DNA of 64,000 nt from a virus, in IMG/VR virus record IMGVR_UViG_3300045988_095676, positions 26,969 through 90,968 of that record; one strand, written 5' to 3'. Numbering within the stretch: position 1 is the stretch's first letter; each line of letters starts with the position of its first letter. A program made the position numbers and the translations under genes. Below, piece after piece: positions 6,937 through 27,371 of the stretch. The notes beneath the pieces are model-generated. The model was not told where the DNA came from and did not search any database. It saw only the letters and a list, made by a program, of their open reading frames with translations.

Positions 6937-7858
6937 ATCGGATTTAGATGGCGTTGTATCGGCAGCCATCGCAACCATGTACGAAAACAGTAAAAACAAG
7001 GATGTTGTTTATATCCCGTATTCGTATGAAGATGATGTTAAGAAAGTTGTTGACCAAGTACGTGACTTAGATGTTGTTTATGTTCTTGACGTGTCTTTTG
7101 GAGCCGATTCTAAAACTGTTTTCAAAAAGTGGCTTGATGAAGGGAAGAGCCTGATGTGGATAGATCACCACAAGGGAATTATTGAGGACAGTAAGACATG
7201 GGGGTTCGTAGTTCCAGGGTTGAGGAGGGTCGGTGTCGGTGCGTGCGCTCTGGCTTCGGACCTGCTTATGGGGAAGGTGCCGGCGATCGTCCGATGCCTG
7301 TCAGACTACGATGTGTGGAATAAAGAATCTGGCTTAGGCTGGGATACGGTAGTAGCTGTCCAGTATGCCTTGAGATCAAAAATAAGACTCAATGTATTGA
7401 TTGCATTGTCGTATTTATATGATCACTTTAAAGAAAACATGAAAGACAATGAAATTGATCTTATTTTTTATGATCTTGCTAAAGAAGGACGTGCTATAAT
7501 TAATTACATGGCTTGTAAAAACGAAGATGAGGTAAGTAGGTACTCGTTCGAAGCTTACGTCGACGAGGTTAAGGTTATGGCTATGAATACCGCTGAATTT
7601 AGCTCTAAGGTATTTGATTCTCTTACACCGGACTGGTTAGACGGTAGAAAAATTAAAGCCCTGATGCCATTTTGTATCATGCCATGTGGAAAAGTTAGGT
7701 TCTCTCTTTACGAATGCGTAGAAGACAGCGTAGATTGCTGTGAGGTAAGTAAGAGATTCGGTGGTGGAGGACATGCTGGTGCTGCTGGATTCGTTATAGA
7801 CGTATCAAGTGACCAGTTTAAGGACTTCCTTGAAAGTAAAAAACTTTTATCGAAATGA
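6902..7858 (+). CDS. DHH/DHHA1-family phosphoesterase (NrnA/RecJ-like)
   Basis: Motifs HKSDLDGV, DVSF, WIDHHKG (DHH) and GGGGHAGAAGF (DHHA1 GGGH). Confidence 0.8.
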   Translation: MKVKKTAIVYHKSDLDGVVSAAIATMYENSKNKDVVYIPYSYEDDVKKVVDQVRDLDVVYVLDVSFGADSKTVFKKWLDEGKSLMWIDHHKGIIEDSKTWGFVVPGLRRVGVGACALASDLLMGKVPAIVRCLSDYDVWNKESGLGWDTVVAVQYALRSKIRLNVLIALSYLYDHFKENMKDNEIDLIFYDLAKEGRAIINYMACKNEDEVSRYSFEAYVDEVKVMAMNTAEFSSKVFDSLTPDWLDGRKIKALMPFCIMPCGKVRFSLYECVEDSVDCCEVSKRFGGGGHAGAAGFVIDVSSDQFKDFLESKKLLSK

Positions 7859-8226
7859 AGCGTGAATTATATCAGTTCTATCCGGAAGTCTATCCTTTTA
7901 ATCTGTGGATATACGTAGGAAAAGATGTATCTGGCATGGTAGAATGTTTCAATAACGATTTTAGTTACGTAGATAATAGCAAGGCTGTAACTGTATCCGT
8001 TCCATACGGAGGGTGTAAATTAAATCCTAATACGGGATTTTTGATATGGTTTCTTAATAAGAAAATAATTGATTTTGAAACAGTTTGCCATGAAGCATCC
8101 CATGTTTCTACTGAAGCTTTTAATTTCTTAGGAGAAGAAGTAAAAAACTTCAGAACCATTCTCGTATCTCAATGGATGGATAGGGAGAAAGTGCGAGGAA
8201 GTAAAGATCGGAATAGCCGAAGATAA
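7855..8226 (+). CDS. small protein with HExxH motif (possible minimal zinc metallopeptidase)
   Basis: CHEASHVSTEA contains HEASH. ATGA overlap with the DHH gene. The functional call is weak. Confidence 0.4.
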   Translation: MKRELYQFYPEVYPFNLWIYVGKDVSGMVECFNNDFSYVDNSKAVTVSVPYGGCKLNPNTGFLIWFLNKKIIDFETVCHEASHVSTEAFNFLGEEVKNFRTILVSQWMDREKVRGSKDRNSRR

Positions 8227-8267
8227 ACTAATATGGGAAAGTAAATAATTACCGTCGTAAAATAAGT

Positions 8268-8300
8268 ATGGGGAACTTTGGATAGGTTCCCCATATTTTT
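8268..8300 (+). terminator. intrinsic terminator
   Basis: 9-bp stem atggggaac/gttccccat, loop tttggatag, then ATTTTT. Confidence 0.7.
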
Positions 8301-8380
8301 ATGTGATGAGGGAGAGGAATGGTGAAATGTTTATGTGATGGGAGAGATATGAGAAAGAGGTTTATGTGATGGGAGAGAGG
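8299..8380 (+). repeat. three direct repeats TTATGTGATGrGrGAGAG (iteron-like)
   Basis: Copies at 8299-8317, 8331-8347 and 8362-8380, with period 31-32 bp. Confidence 0.8.
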
Positions 8381-8408
8381 GGGTACCTATCACGAACCTC
8401 CCGCCCCC

Positions 8409-8463
8409 GAAACGCGTTTTCTCCCCCGCACCCCCCTTCGCTGGAAAACCGGAAACGCGTTTT
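8409..8463. repeat. two copies of palindromic GAAACGCGTTTT embedded in C-runs
   Basis: Copies at 8409-8420 and 8452-8463. C-runs at 8400-02, 8404-08, 8423-27 and 8431-36. Confidence 0.8.
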
Positions 8464-8474
8464 ACCTCAAACCC

Positions 8475-8520
8475 ACAAACTCTCTGATTATCAATCACTT
8501 ATTTAAATTATTGATAATCA
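8475..8520. repeat. 11-bp perfect inverted repeat TGATTATCAAT / ATTGATAATCA
   Basis: Arms at 8475-8485 and 8510-8520. Related TGATWATCA copies near 8540 and 8623. Confidence 0.8.
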
Positions 8521-8705
8521 ATGTGTTATTATAACATATTGATTATAAGCCACTTAAATAAGCATATATCCTACATATTAATGTACGCGTATAACACTGC
8601 TCTCGTTCGTTTTATAACTTTCTGATAATCAGATAATATAATCGAAATTAATACAAATTAACAAAAAAAAGATATCATATATATTTGTAGTATTGATAAA
8701 TGTCG

Positions 8706-8713
8706 TATATTTG
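8706..8713 (+). promoter_or_regulatory. -7 promoter box TATATTTG (second copy at 8680-8687)
   Basis: Matches TAnnTTTG. It is followed by the hairpin cgtgatc-gagaga-gatcacg. Confidence 0.4.
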
Positions 8714-8858
8714 CGTCGTGATCGAGAGAGATCACGAGTTAACATAGTGAACCTATATAGTGTACCCGTTGGGCTAACTATATATGTATCTGTAATTGCC
8801 TGCGTTGTGGGTCATTAATTTGAATATCATTTGTTTAACAATTAAAATATATTGGGAT

Positions 8859-9398
8859 ATGATTACGAAAAAAAATGTAAACAAACTACAGAATGCCGTT
8901 ATCAAAGAAAATGCTGCAAATTTGGTAGGTGCTGTTAAACTGTACAACGCTCTATTTGCTAATGGAGCTGATCTAAAGGCTATTTGCAAGGCTTTGGAAA
9001 TACCGGCAGAATACGCCGTAAAGGTTGCAGCCCTCGCCAAGGATAAAAAACGCCTGGTAGCCGTGTGTAGCCAAATGTTACCGAAAGTTGATAATACCTT
9101 TGTTAAATTTGCTTTATACTCTAAAGTATATAAGGATACCAATGCGGACAAAGAAAAAGGAATTGAAGCTAAAACGGCTGATTGGTGCGCTGAGAATGTG
9201 GTTTACGGTAGCGAATATAAAGCATTTGGTTTTACTACTGCCGAATCATTGGAGAATAAAAAAAGTACTAAATGGTTGGTAAAAGAAACCGACGAGTACA
9301 AATCTACTTATGTGGCTGTTAAGATCAAATCTTATTCTATTCGCACTGTGGCAAAGTGTGTAAGTGAATACCTCGCACATGAAAGCAACCAGCAGTAA
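8859..9398 (+). CDS. hypothetical protein
   Basis: ATG 8859 inside ORF 8796..9398, preceded by the 19-nt element TGTTTAACAATTAAAATAT. Isolated between two long non-coding regions. Confidence 0.6.
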   Translation: MITKKNVNKLQNAVIKENAANLVGAVKLYNALFANGADLKAICKALEIPAEYAVKVAALAKDKKRLVAVCSQMLPKVDNTFVKFALYSKVYKDTNADKEKGIEAKTADWCAENVVYGSEYKAFGFTTAESLENKKSTKWLVKETDEYKSTYVAVKIKSYSIRTVAKCVSEYLAHESNQQ

Positions 9399-9960
9399 CA
9401 AGGCACGGAGAGCGCCGTTAAGCTCTCCAAAGGTTTGACGCGTACCGTTAAACGCGTCTGTACGCCGTTGTCAGTGGGTGCACGTCCCGCGTATGCTTTA
9501 GACTGAAGCTGACAAAACAGAGAGTTATTTTACATATTGGAGATAGATATACCGGTATCGAGGCCGTTGGCAATTAAAAATACGGTATTGCTGCATGAAC
9601 TGCACTAAATAAGTGTGGTTTATGTTAGGTATGTTAGTACAGTTTGGAAAACATACCGTTGTACGCGGTTTATCTCCAGACCGAAACGTGTCTTACTTGC
9701 CTACACGTAAAATAGGACAAGGCTGTAGATTAAATTACAGGGTATAAACATGTAGCCTACCATGTAGGAGCGTGATATATCAAAGCGCAAGGACACAATC
9801 GCCTTTATTTGTGGCTAAGTTGTGTAGCAGACGGAAAATATAATAACAACATAGTACGAGCCTGTACGCAAGAACTACGTACTAATTACGGGCTGTTGGT
9901 TGTAGCATAAAATCTCTATAGGATAGGAATGCGTGTCCGGTTCGATTCCGGAGCAACCTC
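9399..9960 (+). ncRNA. candidate large structured non-coding RNA ending in a tRNA/tmRNA-like T-arm
   Basis: No ORF. Many local hairpins, five CCGTTR motifs, an 8-bp long-range pairing (9538-45 with 9671-78) and a 3' end tccgg-ttcgatt-ccgga-gcaacc. Confidence 0.35.
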
Positions 9961-9983
9961 TAAATTATAAATAATATAATAGC

Positions 9984-10154
9984 ATGGAAAAGAAAGCAAT
10001 GATCAACGCTTTAATTGAAGCGTTCAATAAATCTAAAAACAGTTGCGTAAAAATAACATTGCGTAACTATATCGAGACGGTGGAAACATTGAGCGAAAGT
10101 GAGTACAAAGAGGCGGAAGGTTTCTATATCGAAGCACTTAACCGCTGGAGTTAA
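9984..10154 (+). CDS. hypothetical protein (56 aa, below the ORF-track cutoff)
   Basis: Hand-translated ATG..TAA ORF MEKKAMINALIEAF...NRWS. Confidence 0.45.
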   Translation: MEKKAMINALIEAFNKSKNSCVKITLRNYIETVETLSESEYKEAEGFYIEALNRWS

Positions 10155-10176
10155 TCATAATTAAAGCATAAAGAAA

Positions 10177-10383
10177 ATGGAAAGGAAATTTAAATCTTAT
10201 ATGGTAGACGTCCGCGGTCTGTCCAGGAAAGAAGCTAAAGAAAAGCGGAAAAGAGCGTATCGGGAATTTATGTTGTATCGTGATCTCAAAGAAGCGTATC
10301 ATGCCGATACAGGAAAGGACAAATGCAAACGTAAAGTCCATACATCACGAACATACGTGAAAGAAAACATAAACAGTATTTAA
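10177..10383 (+). CDS. small basic hypothetical protein
   Basis: ORF track, followed directly by a strong terminator. Confidence 0.55.
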   Translation: MERKFKSYMVDVRGLSRKEAKEKRKRAYREFMLYRDLKEAYHADTGKDKCKRKVHTSRTYVKENINSI

Positions 10384-10391
10384 ATAGGGAT

Positions 10392-10426
10392 AGGGTTGTT
10401 CCGAATATCGGAGCAGCCCTATTTTT
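10392..10426 (+). terminator. intrinsic terminator
   Basis: 12-bp stem agggttgttccg/cggagcagccct (two G-T pairs), 5-nt loop, then ATTTTT. Confidence 0.75.
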
Positions 10427-10488
10427 GTATCCTACTCTTTCTATTTACGGGTAGGATATTCTGAGAGTGAACGGCGGATGTAAGCTAT

Positions 10489-10581
10489 ATTGGTCTAAAA
10501 CGAAACTAAAATATGAGAGTTTGGATACAATGCCGGTATTTTGTCTATATCATGTCGTTGAAATTGGTCTAAAACGAAACT
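10489..10581 (+). repeat. 19-bp perfect direct repeat ATTGGTCTAAAACGAAACT, two copies
   Basis: Copies at 10489-10507 and 10563-10581 (74-bp period). Confidence 0.85.
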
Positions 10582-10583
10582 TT

Positions 10584-10629
10584 AGGCGGTTTTCTGACCC
10601 AAAATAGGGCGTCGGATGCCGCCTTTTTC
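10584..10629 (+). terminator. terminator-like hairpin with internal sub-hairpin
   Basis: aggcgg...ccgcct stem enclosing ccc-aaaata-ggg, followed by TTTTC. Confidence 0.5.
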
Positions 10630-10754
10630 GTCTCTATGGATTGAAAATTAGGCTTATTGTACTTTTCTTAAAAATAAGGTATGCTTGATTATCAATTAGT
10701 TAGGTTTTATGATACCCGTATTTTCGGACACACTTATTGTAAATTTTTTATTTT

Positions 10755-10922
10755 ATGTGGTGGTTTTTATTAGTAGCTGACCTGTATTTTTTATCGGTTG
10801 GAGTAAGGTCTATGTTGGAGTACGGACCGGATCAGTATAATATTGTAATGGTCTTTTGCTTTTCTTTATTGGCTTTGATTATAGGCTTAAATATCTATCT
10901 TGATAGGAGGAGCAGGCGGTAG
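10755..10922 (+). CDS. small membrane protein (55 aa, two hydrophobic helices)
   Basis: Hand-translated MWWFLLVADLYFL...LALIIGLNIYLDRRSRR, TAG stop. Below the ORF-track cutoff. Confidence 0.4.
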   Translation: MWWFLLVADLYFLSVGVRSMLEYGPDQYNIVMVFCFSLLALIIGLNIYLDRRSRR

Positions 10923-11110
10923 GGCGTGGGCTGAAGGCTCTCTATTCTCTCTATGGAATGATATTATCTCTAAATACCCCATACTTCATGCCAGAGTATA
11001 AGCTTGTAGCGCTCTCCGTATGCCGGTAGTGAGGCCGAGAGCGCAGGTTCTATGCGGAAAGCCGGAGGATTAGCCGGGGTTGGAGAGGGGGAGAGGGAGG
11101 GCACTCCCTA

Positions 11111-11250
11111 CCAACAAAATTCAATAGATAAGCGTTTTAAAACAGTGTTCTGTAGATCATTTCCACAAAATTCAATATGATAAGGGTTTAAAACAGCATT
11201 ATATAGGTTCCTTCCAACAGATTAAGGGTTGAGGACTGCATTATGTGAGT
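11111..11250 (+). repeat. three imperfect tandem repeats (core ATWAAGSGTTTAAAACAG..TAG), period about 52 then 42 bp
   Basis: Cores start at 11128, 11180 and 11222. The first two units also share ACAAAATTCAATA. Confidence 0.7.
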
Positions 11251-11285
11251 ATTTTTTTTTAAGCGGGATGTTTAACAATTAAAAT

Positions 11286-11555
11286 ATGGATGGTATGAAC
11301 GTATATGACTTTGCGCCTGACTTAGATTTGAGTAAGGAGGTAGAAGGTTCTATTTTCGGGGTAAAAGGAATAGAAGGCAGTGATGGAATAGTATATGCTA
11401 AGGTAGTTAGCTGTGTAGACGTTAAGGATTACAGTTGTGATAGGTGTATTTTTTATGATTGTTATAAGGATAAATGTTTATTATCGCGTAGTGATAGTTG
11501 TATAGATGGAGATTGGATTTGTAGGTACGAACAGGCTGCCATAGAGGGGGAGTAG
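11286..11555 (+). CDS. Cys-rich hypothetical protein
   Basis: ORF track, preceded by the same 19-nt element as the 8859 gene. Confidence 0.65.
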   Translation: MDGMNVYDFAPDLDLSKEVEGSIFGVKGIEGSDGIVYAKVVSCVDVKDYSCDRCIFYDCYKDKCLLSRSDSCIDGDWICRYEQAAIEGE

Positions 11556-11663
11556 GCGGCGCCTTGGGCTAAGGCCTGCGGTTGTAGGTGGAACGTAGGT
11601 CGGAGCAGAGCCGGAACAGTTTATTGTGGAACTAAAAAAAAATAAAAAGGAGGAGATAGCGAT

Positions 11664-11744
11664 ATGAAAAAGGCATTTAAGATATTTTCTATTATGTTTG
11701 TCATAGAAATAGTGCTGATAGCTATTTTAGATGCTATGGCGTAA
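11664..11744 (+). CDS. 26-aa hydrophobic peptide
   Basis: MKKAFKIFSIMFVIEIVLIAILDAMA, preceded by an unusually strong AAAGGAGGAG Shine-Dalgarno-like sequence. Confidence 0.4.
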   Translation: MKKAFKIFSIMFVIEIVLIAILDAMA

Positions 11745-11787
11745 GTGAGAAAAATTTCTTCATTAATTTTCTTATGCTTTAGACAGA

Positions 11788-11815
11788 ATGCTCCCATCTG
11801 CGAAGATCGGAGCAT
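11788..11815 (+). promoter_or_regulatory. conserved-loop hairpin B
   Basis: 7-bp stem atgctcc/ggagcat, 14-nt loop catctgcgaagatc. Confidence 0.6.
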
Positions 11816-11823
11816 TTGCTTTA

Positions 11824-11868
11824 TGGGATTCATGGTGCAGCAAGTCGGTTCGATTCCGGCGATCTCAC
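11824..11868 (+). ncRNA. tRNA-like acceptor/T-arm minihelix (not a full cloverleaf)
   Basis: Acceptor tgggatt/gatctca (7 bp including G3:U70), 13-nt linker, T-arm gtcgg-ttcgatt-ccggc. No D or anticodon arm. Confidence 0.4.
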
Positions 11869-11891
11869 ACAACATTAAAATAGGGAAGAAC

Positions 11892-12296
11892 ATGTTAAAA
11901 GAAGAATTTGAAGAACTGATTAAAAGGGAGGTAAACGAAAATCAGTATAAAAACATAGAAACGGCATACGAGGCTTTGCCGGAGTATATGGATAAGATGT
12001 ATTTAGCAAGTGCTATTTCAAATGATATTGGGAAAGCTATTAATGTCTTATCGTTTTTAGGATCGCATATAAGCGAGTTAATGGGTTCGATAATAATCGA
12101 AAGGCAAAAGGTGGAATCATGTGCCTATGATTTAATAAACAAATCGCATGAGGAGGATGACTTGAAAGCAAGAGAGATTGCCGTGCGATTAATAGGAGAG
12201 AGGGAAACAGTGGCATACACAGTAAAAGAAGGGCTGCCATTGTGGGAACAAGATAAAAAGTTTATAATAGAATTAATAAAGGAGGATAGAAAATGA
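11892..12296 (+). CDS. hypothetical protein
   Basis: ATG 11892 inside ORF 11745..12296. The upstream part of that ORF overlaps the RNA elements. Confidence 0.65.
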   Translation: MLKEEFEELIKREVNENQYKNIETAYEALPEYMDKMYLASAISNDIGKAINVLSFLGSHISELMGSIIIERQKVESCAYDLINKSHEEDDLKAREIAVRLIGERETVAYTVKEGLPLWEQDKKFIIELIKEDRK

Positions 12297-26903: not shown

Positions 26904-27371
26904 ATGGGATTAACCTATAAAACAAAATTGCTTATGAAAACATTAGAACAACTTAAAGAATTAACATCAAAATGTTTAGACGGTAGAGATTTTAACAGAC
27001 TGGCTAAATTTGTTCCATATAGCATGATAAAGGATTTCGGTATGGAGCCGAATGAAGAATATGACAACGAGGAAAAGTGGAACAGTACTGTAGTTGAATT
27101 TACCAGAGAAAATGTCCTGAAACAGCTTGAAGAAGACGTAAGATTCGGTTTTGAAAAGGCATTAAATCAGAGAGGAATATCAGCCAGTTTGATGTTTGAA
27201 TGTGTGATGATGTGGAACTACATTCTGGAAGAAGGTCTTGAAGGCTGGGGTGAGGATGATTATGCATTTTATGGACTCCCTCTATTTAAAGCTACGGCTG
27301 TAAAATATGGATGGGACAATCCGATAGGGGAAGACAGCGGGAGAGAAAGAAAATATGATTCACAATATTAA
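26904..27371 (+). CDS. hypothetical protein
   Basis: ORF track. An alternative ATG at 26934 is possible. Confidence 0.6.
   Translation: MGLTYKTKLLMKTLEQLKELTSKCLDGRDFNRLAKFVPYSMIKDFGMEPNEEYDNEEKWNSTVVEFTRENVLKQLEEDVRFGFEKALNQRGISASLMFECVMMWNYILEEGLEGWGEDDYAFYGLPLFKATAVKYGWDNPIGEDSGRERKYDSQY

Follow-up and report, generated by a model that had tools for sequence, protein, structure and literature searches.

The DNA treated here (the window) is a stretch of 64,000 nucleotides (nt) that covers positions 26,969 to 90,968 of the IMG/VR virus record IMGVR_UViG_3300045988_095676, and the element in question is its largely intergenic region at 10430-11285, termed hub 2 to distinguish it from an upstream twin, hub 1. 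Phages of the epsilon crAss-like group occur commonly in the human gut, and none has been brought into culture. The 3.4 kb around the region match a single GenBank phage, csAssE-Sib/crAssE-Sib (OR575929.1; 151,256 bp, human gut), with 87-93% identity. This phage was placed in the epsilon crAss-like group in the proposed genus Epsilonunovirus (PMC11054128), and the same paper names a prophage-like relative in Parabacteroides distasonis BFG-238. Judged from its sequence, the window belongs to an uncultured human-gut epsilon crAss-like phage.

The region is built of four conserved modules rather than of a single element. The modules exist, the arrays among them vary in copy number, and the architecture is kept in two clades. 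Our preferred reading, held tentatively and with a confidence just short of even, is that of a conserved composite intergenic control region which combines a small-RNA unit, the gene of a small membrane protein and, upstream of the next gene block, a stretch rich in repeats. Together with its twin the region forms the most distinctive non-coding landmark of the genome, and this architecture is conserved across two proposed genera.

Organization of the region

All genes from 1 to about 55 kb of the window lie on the + strand, with a strongly positive GC skew. Downstream of the region dozens of small genes without annotated function are found, and the replication genes come after them. The features of the region are as follows.

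10384..10428, + strand: T1, intrinsic terminator of the upstream gene for a protein of 68 amino acids (aa; 10177-10383), a long hairpin ending in a T-run
10430..10629, + strand: candidate small non-coding RNA unit of about 200 nt between T1 and T2
10430..10456, + strand: small hairpin TCCTACTC...GGGTAGGA of the predicted fold, then invariant ATATTCTGAGAGTGAAC
10465..10466, no strand: start and end of the crAssE-Sib record, base 1 corresponding to 10465 and the last base (151256) to 10466
10489..10507, + strand: 19-nt box copy 1 (ATTGGTCTAAAACGAAACT), exact match
10563..10581, + strand: 19-nt box copy 2, exact match, directly upstream of T2
10584..10629, + strand: T2, compound-hairpin intrinsic terminator with invariant T-run, called terminator-like by the scan
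10640..10754, + strand: AT-rich, highly conserved upstream region of the small gene
10755..10922, + strand: gene encoding 55 aa; the product has two hydrophobic segments and is basic at its C-terminus
10923..11075, + strand: GC-rich spacer with local hairpins such as GCGCTCTC...GAGAGCGC at 11010-11045
11076..11109, + strand: purine/G tract of the (GGGAGA)n type with a G-quadruplex (G4) motif, ending in the hairpin AGGGAG-GGCA-CTCCCT
11111..11260, + strand: nested variable-number tandem array on CCAACAAAATTCAA with two 51-nt units, a degenerate third and a T9 run
11269..11287, + strand: 19-mer TGTTTAACAATTAAAATAT, which reaches into the start codon of the following gene (11286)

Conservation in two clades

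Relatives were collected by scanning IMG/VR for the 19-mer ATTGGTCTAAAACGAAACT and, in addition, with two flanking proteins; over 250 loci with 80-100% identity were obtained, belonging to the same phage group. Since the members of the conservation set for the clade of the window (clade I) were picked by a protein and not via the 19-mer, this set is unbiased toward the region, and in it the non-coding sequence at 10430-11100 is as conserved as the flanking genes. A scan of bacterial genomes for further relatives gave a mis-binned contig of the same phage as its only match.

A second clade (clade II) was reached through the 179-aa protein encoded between the two hubs, at 32% identity, and comprises MT836733.1 and 80 IMG/VR contigs of 80-187 kb. 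The order of modules there is the same as in clade I, with no alignable nucleotide similarity: the homologous gene is followed by about 670 nt of non-coding DNA, a 68-aa open reading frame (ORF), a terminator, about 330 nt of conserved non-coding sequence, a small ORF with two hydrophobic segments, a G-rich tract ending in a GGGAGGG...CCTCC hairpin, a tandem array and the next genes. The non-coding stretch of clade II is more conserved (89-95%) than its flanking genes (80-87%).

The initial annotation had also suggested that 8.2-11.3 kb is a discrete cassette, to be checked by synteny. Hub 2 was found in 30/30 relatives that had been selected via a flanking gene and carried enough downstream sequence, and because of this carriage and the synteny in clade II the stretch is a core feature and not an accessory or mobile cassette. 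Only single small genes within this stretch or next to it come and go among close relatives, at 7855-8226, 9984-10154 and 11880-12275; the first of them, encoding 123 aa, was found in only about 16 of some 90 relatives.

A candidate small RNA between two terminators

T1 forms the left edge of the region (fold -29.8 kcal/mol, z = -8.0), and its stem is kept in relatives via compensatory changes such as those from CCG/CGG to CTG/CAG and from GGG..CCC to TGG..CCA. The compound hairpin with T-run which had been noticed at 10584-10629 is present as T2 and was scored as terminator-like. It folds with about -23 kcal/mol, and the hairpin forms in 38/38 sequence variants (-13 to -27 kcal/mol), with CTTTTTC following. 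At the pair 10597/10612 most variants have A-U and several haplotypes G-C, with G-U as the intermediate state. T2 thus has what defines an intrinsic terminator, a stable hairpin with a U-run, and its stem is kept by compensatory change. On the pattern of substitutions both hairpins, T1 and T2, are maintained in evolution.

The unit enclosed by them contains a single ORF (10467-10607). A 13-nt replacement indel in about 19 relatives breaks this ORF, and the unit is therefore non-coding. Compared with shuffled sequences, it folds with z = -3.2 on the + strand and with z = -0.6 on the - strand, the excess in clade I stemming from the terminal hairpins. The sequence flanking the small hairpin at 10430-10456 is nearly invariant among 77 distinct variants, and variation in its stem pairs is mixed, with some wobble changes and some breaks. 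RNAalifold and pair counts showed no covariation in clade I, where the alignment is too shallow for covariation to be demonstrable. With Rfam, tRNAs alone reached the gathering threshold, and nothing credible appeared at E values up to 10 in 8200-12000.

The layout of T1, about 190 nt and T2 recurs in clade II, where the analogous T2 hairpin is followed by TTTT and the unit folds with z = -4.7 on the + strand and z = -1.8 on the - strand. Across 63 distinct sequences a long hairpin at the corresponding position is 98.6% paired and varies almost exclusively in wobble-compatible ways. In one clade II contig (L282, 6480-6840; IMGVR_UViG_3300045988_060425) the whole unit of long hairpin and T2, about 171 nt, is tandemly duplicated; the unit thus behaves as a module.

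The perfect 19-bp direct repeat described at 10489 and 10563 is exact. ATTGGTCTAAAACGAAACT has these two sites only in the window, even if up to 3 mismatches are allowed (chance expectation 0.01). Copy 1 is the more variable box in relatives, with up to 4 substitutions and hypervariable segments on both sides, copy 2 is the better conserved one, and the two diverge independently of each other. Their spacing is 74 nt in 84/84 distinct contexts. Several roles were considered for the boxes and rejected. As an RNA seed the 19-mer finds a longest + strand complement of 10 nt in the window, which is chance level, and as an antiterminator partner of T2 it forms a duplex no better than that of shuffled sequences, 10% of which reach it. 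A CRISPR mini-array would have repeats of about 28-37 nt or longer and spacers of about 30-40 nt that turn over between relatives; here a 19-nt repeat occurs twice, and the interval of 55 nt is conserved and constant in length.

The small gene of a probable membrane protein and its upstream region

The 55-aa ORF at 10755-10922, which had been described as encoding two transmembrane segments, is present, with two hydrophobic stretches read from the sequence. It is intact in 92/93 distinct variants, its substitutions are conservative, and its variable sites are distributed 13/4/28 over the three codon positions. The positional counterpart in clade II has 63 aa and a distribution of 12/7/26. Since the frame is kept open and substitutions are concentrated at third codon positions, 10755-10922 is, on this codon pattern, a genuine coding gene in both clades, and its product is probably inserted into the membrane. 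Neither the 55-aa nor the 63-aa protein has a match in Pfam, PHROGs or NCBIfam. In clade II the perfect 14-bp palindrome GTTCCACGTGGAAC directly follows the stop codon of the small gene (contig L195, 8045-8058) and is conserved across the clade. A further hydrophobic ORF of 26 aa (MKKAFKIFSIMFVIEIVLIAILDAMA) at 11665-11745, with AGGAGG before it and a hairpin after it, may encode another small membrane peptide.

The region upstream of the gene contains two CTTATTGTA boxes (10653 and 10733), the palindrome TTGATTATCAA at 10685-10695 and, between T2 and the ORF, a promoter-like site of the sigma-70 type (TTGATT-17-TATGAT). In clade II ACTTATTGTAnATTTTT occurs twice at the same place, one copy standing directly before the start codon. 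CTTATTGTA and GGGAGAG show no enrichment across the window. The palindrome, of the form TTGATnATCAA, is found exactly only in the two hubs (8484-8521 and 10685-10695) and also in hub 1 of clade II (L195, 5806-5816); it looks like an operator for a dimeric regulator. A repressor and antirepressors are encoded in the published crAssE-Sib genome (PMC11054128).

Spacer, purine/G tract and tandem array

The spacer at 10923-11075 is the most variable part outside the repeats, with 45% of its sites varying versus 50% at third codon positions, and has no excess of folding (z = +0.11). It is followed by the purine/G tract. The four G-runs reported at 11076-11101 are present, and a G4 prediction was run on them: GGGGTTGGAGAGGGGGAGAGGGAGGG is the sole canonical G4 motif, defined as four runs of at least 3 G with loops of 1-7 nt, on either strand of the 64 kb, and shuffles give 0.12. 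The tract is polymorphic in length and expands and contracts among 89 variants, about half of which keep loops of at most 7 nt; most others have a first loop of 9 nt, and in crAssE-Sib GGA replaces the third G-run. The counterpart in clade II (GGGAGGGGACACCTCC) has 37% G and 17% C.

The array at 11111-11260 had been described as three tandem repeats. Two clear copies of 51 nt exist (11114-11164 and 11165-11215; 71% identical), and a third one, truncated and degenerate, extends to about 11250 and can be recognised against the arrays of relatives. Tandem Repeats Finder did not report the array at its thresholds. The T9 run lies, as had been noted, before the next gene, at 11251-11259, and is missing in some relatives. 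In relatives, sub-units of 51, 21 and 22 nt have been expanded independently, CCAACAAAATTCAA occurs in every unit type, so that 2-9 copies of this core are present, and arrays that were assembled through are 207-518 nt long. At the same place clade II has an array of a 10-11-nt repeat, CAAGGnAAAy, with 1-23 copies.

A corresponding array lies in hub 1 (8295-8380), 2.9 kb upstream of that of hub 2, and the two are the dominant contig breakpoints of the group. Among contigs truncated downstream of the flanking gene (n = 47), about 22 stop within the array of hub 1 and 18 within that of hub 2, and clade II contigs likewise break at their arrays. This analysis used contig ranges only; locus ends from the pattern scan (e.g. 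10543/10544) were dismissed as termini because they are boundaries of storage chunks and not contig ends. In thousands of public Logan/ENA assemblies the segment flanked by the two arrays stands alone as a contig of about 2.75 kb (clade II: about 2.5 kb); once it was mis-binned in a Veillonella metagenome-assembled genome (NZ_DXLG01000138.1). Fragmentation at fixed places and the orphan contig of about 2.75 kb are due to the two arrays, and contig ends at the arrays are assembly breaks caused by repeats and no evidence of DNA ends.

Downstream of the array, TGTTTAACAATTAAAATAT has just two exact copies in the window, the other (8832-8850) standing before the gene that follows hub 1. All array variants carry it unchanged at their 3' end, and it may be a shared promoter or translation-start signal.

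tRNA genes and tRNA-like sites

ARAGORN found four tRNAs at 2283-2645 and no others in the window. The phage also encodes an enzyme resembling CCA-adding/poly(A) polymerases, a polynucleotide kinase and an NrnA-like phosphoesterase. A motif resembling a tRNA T-arm (GGTTCGATTCCGG) with an acceptor-like tail occurs at two sites, one at 9937-9949 at the 3' end of a 560-nt non-coding stretch (9400-9983) and one at 11847-11859 preceding the gene at 11892; neither was called by ARAGORN or Rfam.

A proposed composite control region

The features can be joined in one scheme, in which T1 would end the transcript of the preceding gene and the unit of about 200 nt would be a + strand small RNA ending at T2. 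The 19-nt boxes, set in sequence that is mostly without structure, could serve as modules recognised by a protein or a target RNA. A promoter-like AT-rich region would precede the 55-aa gene, and the purine/G tract with its hairpin and then the slippage-prone CCAACAAAATTCAA array would stand upstream of the next block of small genes. We infer from these patterns that the unit would be transcribed as an RNA of its own, that the 19-mers and the array motifs would be binding sites and that the region would be linked to packaging.

The small-RNA gene with a duplicated module that had been proposed from the first look at this DNA is plausible. The unit is non-coding, lies between two conserved terminators and has a layout that recurs in clade II; the independent divergence of the two box copies and the two folding results given next speak against the proposal. 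A number of observations weigh against a control region with its own RNA. The stretch bearing the 19-mers has no significant fold (z = -1.05), and the long hairpin around copy 1 in the predicted minimum-free-energy structure is contradicted by variation among relatives, with 10 pair-preserving and 29 pair-breaking alleles. The only promoter candidate for the RNA, a TAnnTTTG-like box at 10420-10427, is weak and not conserved, reading TATTTTCG in many relatives. A pair of terminators separated by 200 nt may do no more than insulate redundantly. Clade II has no copy of the 19-mers, and searching it with nhmmer profiles of clade I sub-regions gave no significant matches. The pair counts of clade II are not above the shuffle control (152/500), and its long hairpin is fairly stable on the - strand too (z = -2.6), so that it could be an inverted repeat of the DNA. 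Taken with these points, 10430-10629 is a plausible candidate for a small-RNA gene.

The idea of a regulatory island, put forward in the initial annotation, is reasonable in view of the conserved architecture. It was formed without three facts: the 55-aa ORF is genuinely coding, assemblies break at the repeats, which are hypervariable, and a predicted genome terminus falls inside the region. For uncultured phages of this kind the candidate RNA and the small membrane protein are concrete targets for metatranscriptome mining.

Alternative explanations

The only genome end predicted for these phages falls, by alignment of the records, within 10430-10629. The start of the crAssE-Sib record was set by PhageTerm (p = 1.5e-22, TruSeq-type library; PMC11054128). 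With this terminus inside the candidate-RNA unit, the same DNA may also be a packaging start. Taken by itself, 10430-10640 would then be a DNA-level packaging-initiation site of the pac type, at which terminase recognises the inverted repeat and the 19-bp repeats and cuts at 10465/10466, an explanation that we regard as unlikely without setting it aside. The PhageTerm start maps exactly to this position, 9 nt past the small inverted repeat and 23 nt before box copy 1, and the sequence around it is nearly invariant, with GGGTAGGATATTCTGAG before and AGTGAAC after the predicted cut, as would fit a packaging site. Repeats flanking the cleavage site are typical of pac sites, e.g. those of SPP1 and P1, and the invariant box spacing of 74 bp is about 7 helical turns, which places both boxes on the same face of the helix. 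Among crAss-like phages packaging with direct terminal repeats and of the pac type are both reported: crAss001 has short terminal repeats of 576 bp, and for crAss002 pac-type headful packaging was described.

Against a packaging site speaks that the terminus is a single in-silico prediction from one sample, and that the terminase genes lie between 17 and 35 kb on the crAssE-Sib record and thus at least 17 kb from the site (PMC11054128). Around the site only small genes without annotated function are found; adjacency to terminase is usual for pac sites and not universal. None of the 47 truncated metagenomic contigs ends at 10465, which carries little weight, since permuted or terminally redundant genomes yield circular assemblies. 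Clade II lacks the 19-mers proposed as terminase boxes. Finally, the strand bias of the T-run and the changes tolerating G-U pairs point to a function at the RNA level for at least the T2 hairpin.

A role as the 5' leader of the small gene appears improbable. In this case 10430-10754 would be transcribed with the gene, T2 would be a regulated attenuator, and the boxes would bind an antiterminator, as nut or RAT sites do, or form a structure competing with T2. T2 does precede the ORF by 125 nt, and the sequence separating the two is conserved; both clades retain the small gene with its upstream layout; and box copy 2, which abuts T2, could pair into a 7-bp hairpin (GUCUAAA/UUUAGGC) overlapping the 5' arm of T2. 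However, this alternative hairpin is weak (-10.3 kcal/mol versus -24.6 for T2), the duplex of the 19-mer with T2 is matched by the 10% of shuffles mentioned above, an antiterminator structure lacks support from covariation, and a separate promoter-like site sits between T2 and the ORF.

It is slightly less probable still that the G tract and the array are a replication origin or DNA-processing signal, possibly together with hub 1, with the repeats acting as iterons and the G-rich strand favouring an R-loop or G4 primer. The independently expanded sub-units all contain CCAACAAAATTCAA and so are direct repeats with a conserved core, as in an iteron array; both clades, despite their differing sequences, keep a tract with strand asymmetry that is G-rich in hub 2 and C-rich in hub 1; and in hub 1 repeats are followed by a block of 58% GC and then by 250 nt of 20-29% GC with palindromes. 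On the other hand, the GC skew keeps its sign at both hubs, which is not the pattern of an iteron origin, and the clade II unit is a 10-nt purine-rich microsatellite and not a typical iteron. Neutral slippage explains the variation in copy number equally well. No recognisable initiator gene is nearby, the neighbouring proteins could not be assigned, and the 179-aa inter-hub protein has no recognisable family or fold: it has no match in Pfam, PHROGs, NCBIfam or the PDB sequences, and its AlphaFold model (predicted local distance difference test score 61) found nothing with Foldseek at E <= 0.001.

In a related proposal, equally doubtful, the C-rich hub 1 and the G-rich hub 2 (on the + strand) would be a conserved strand-asymmetric pair of signals for DNA processing which brackets a unit of 2.5-2.9 kb with the genome terminus; the terminator-bounded RNA and its 19-nt boxes would belong to this machinery. 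The mirror relation of G-runs and C-runs that had been remarked on between the hubs holds as a compositional asymmetry conserved in both clades; it does not hold as a match of sequences. The C-runs of hub 1 are real (8400-8445) and fail the canonical G4 loop limit because of their central gap of 14 nt. In the same C-rich block the perfect palindrome AAACGCGTTT occurs twice, at 8409-8418 and 8452-8461, 43 nt apart.

Least probable is that everything except the small gene and the terminators arose as a neutral by-product, namely a duplicated 19-mer, slippage-prone DNA and a chance G tract: the independent divergence of the boxes, the strong length polymorphism of arrays and G tract and the near-neutral variation of 10923-11105 fit it, but 10430-10754 is conserved as well as or better than coding sequence in two clades, the module order is retained where sequences cannot be aligned, and the box spacing is invariant.

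Comparison with known systems

Tandem-repeat arrays are known from plasmid iterons, F sopC and the repeats beside the T7 terminal repeat. The array described here shares with them the head-to-tail copies of a core, the non-coding location and a copy number that varies between isolates; it differs in that the unit length also varies between genomes (21, 22 and 51 nt, and 10-11 nt in clade II). ColE1 RNA II and the mitochondrial conserved sequence block II are G-rich elements which form R-loops or G-quadruplexes at replication primers. As in these, a G-rich non-template strand lies here downstream of a transcription unit without a terminator in between, whereas the tract is polymorphic in length and only about half of the relatives keep loops of at most 7 nt. 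In pacL/pacC/pacR of SPP1 and in P1 pac repeats lie on either side of the cleavage point. The predicted cleavage at 10465/10466 likewise adjoins an inverted repeat and helically phased direct repeats; the site is neither in nor beside terminase genes, and the cleavage comes from one PhageTerm run on a relative.

Lambda oop RNA is an example of a terminator-bounded small RNA gene. With small-RNA genes of phages and bacteria of this class the unit at 10430-10629 has in common that it is short, non-coding and intergenic and ends in a conserved Rho-independent terminator, and it differs from them in having neither an Rfam family nor target complementarity above chance in the window. The precedent for our reading is the phage phi14:2, which produces abundant early non-coding RNAs from two long intergenic regions that surround one gene close to its genome end (bioRxiv 10.1101/2020.03.07.982082). 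There is no sequence relationship to the region described here. Transcription was shown for phi14:2 and is a prediction in our case, and the descriptions of phi14:2 mention neither repeat arrays nor a G tract nor a gene of a small membrane protein. Both phages are crAss-like, and each has a single gene close to the beginning of the early, rightward-transcribed block that is flanked by long non-coding stretches.

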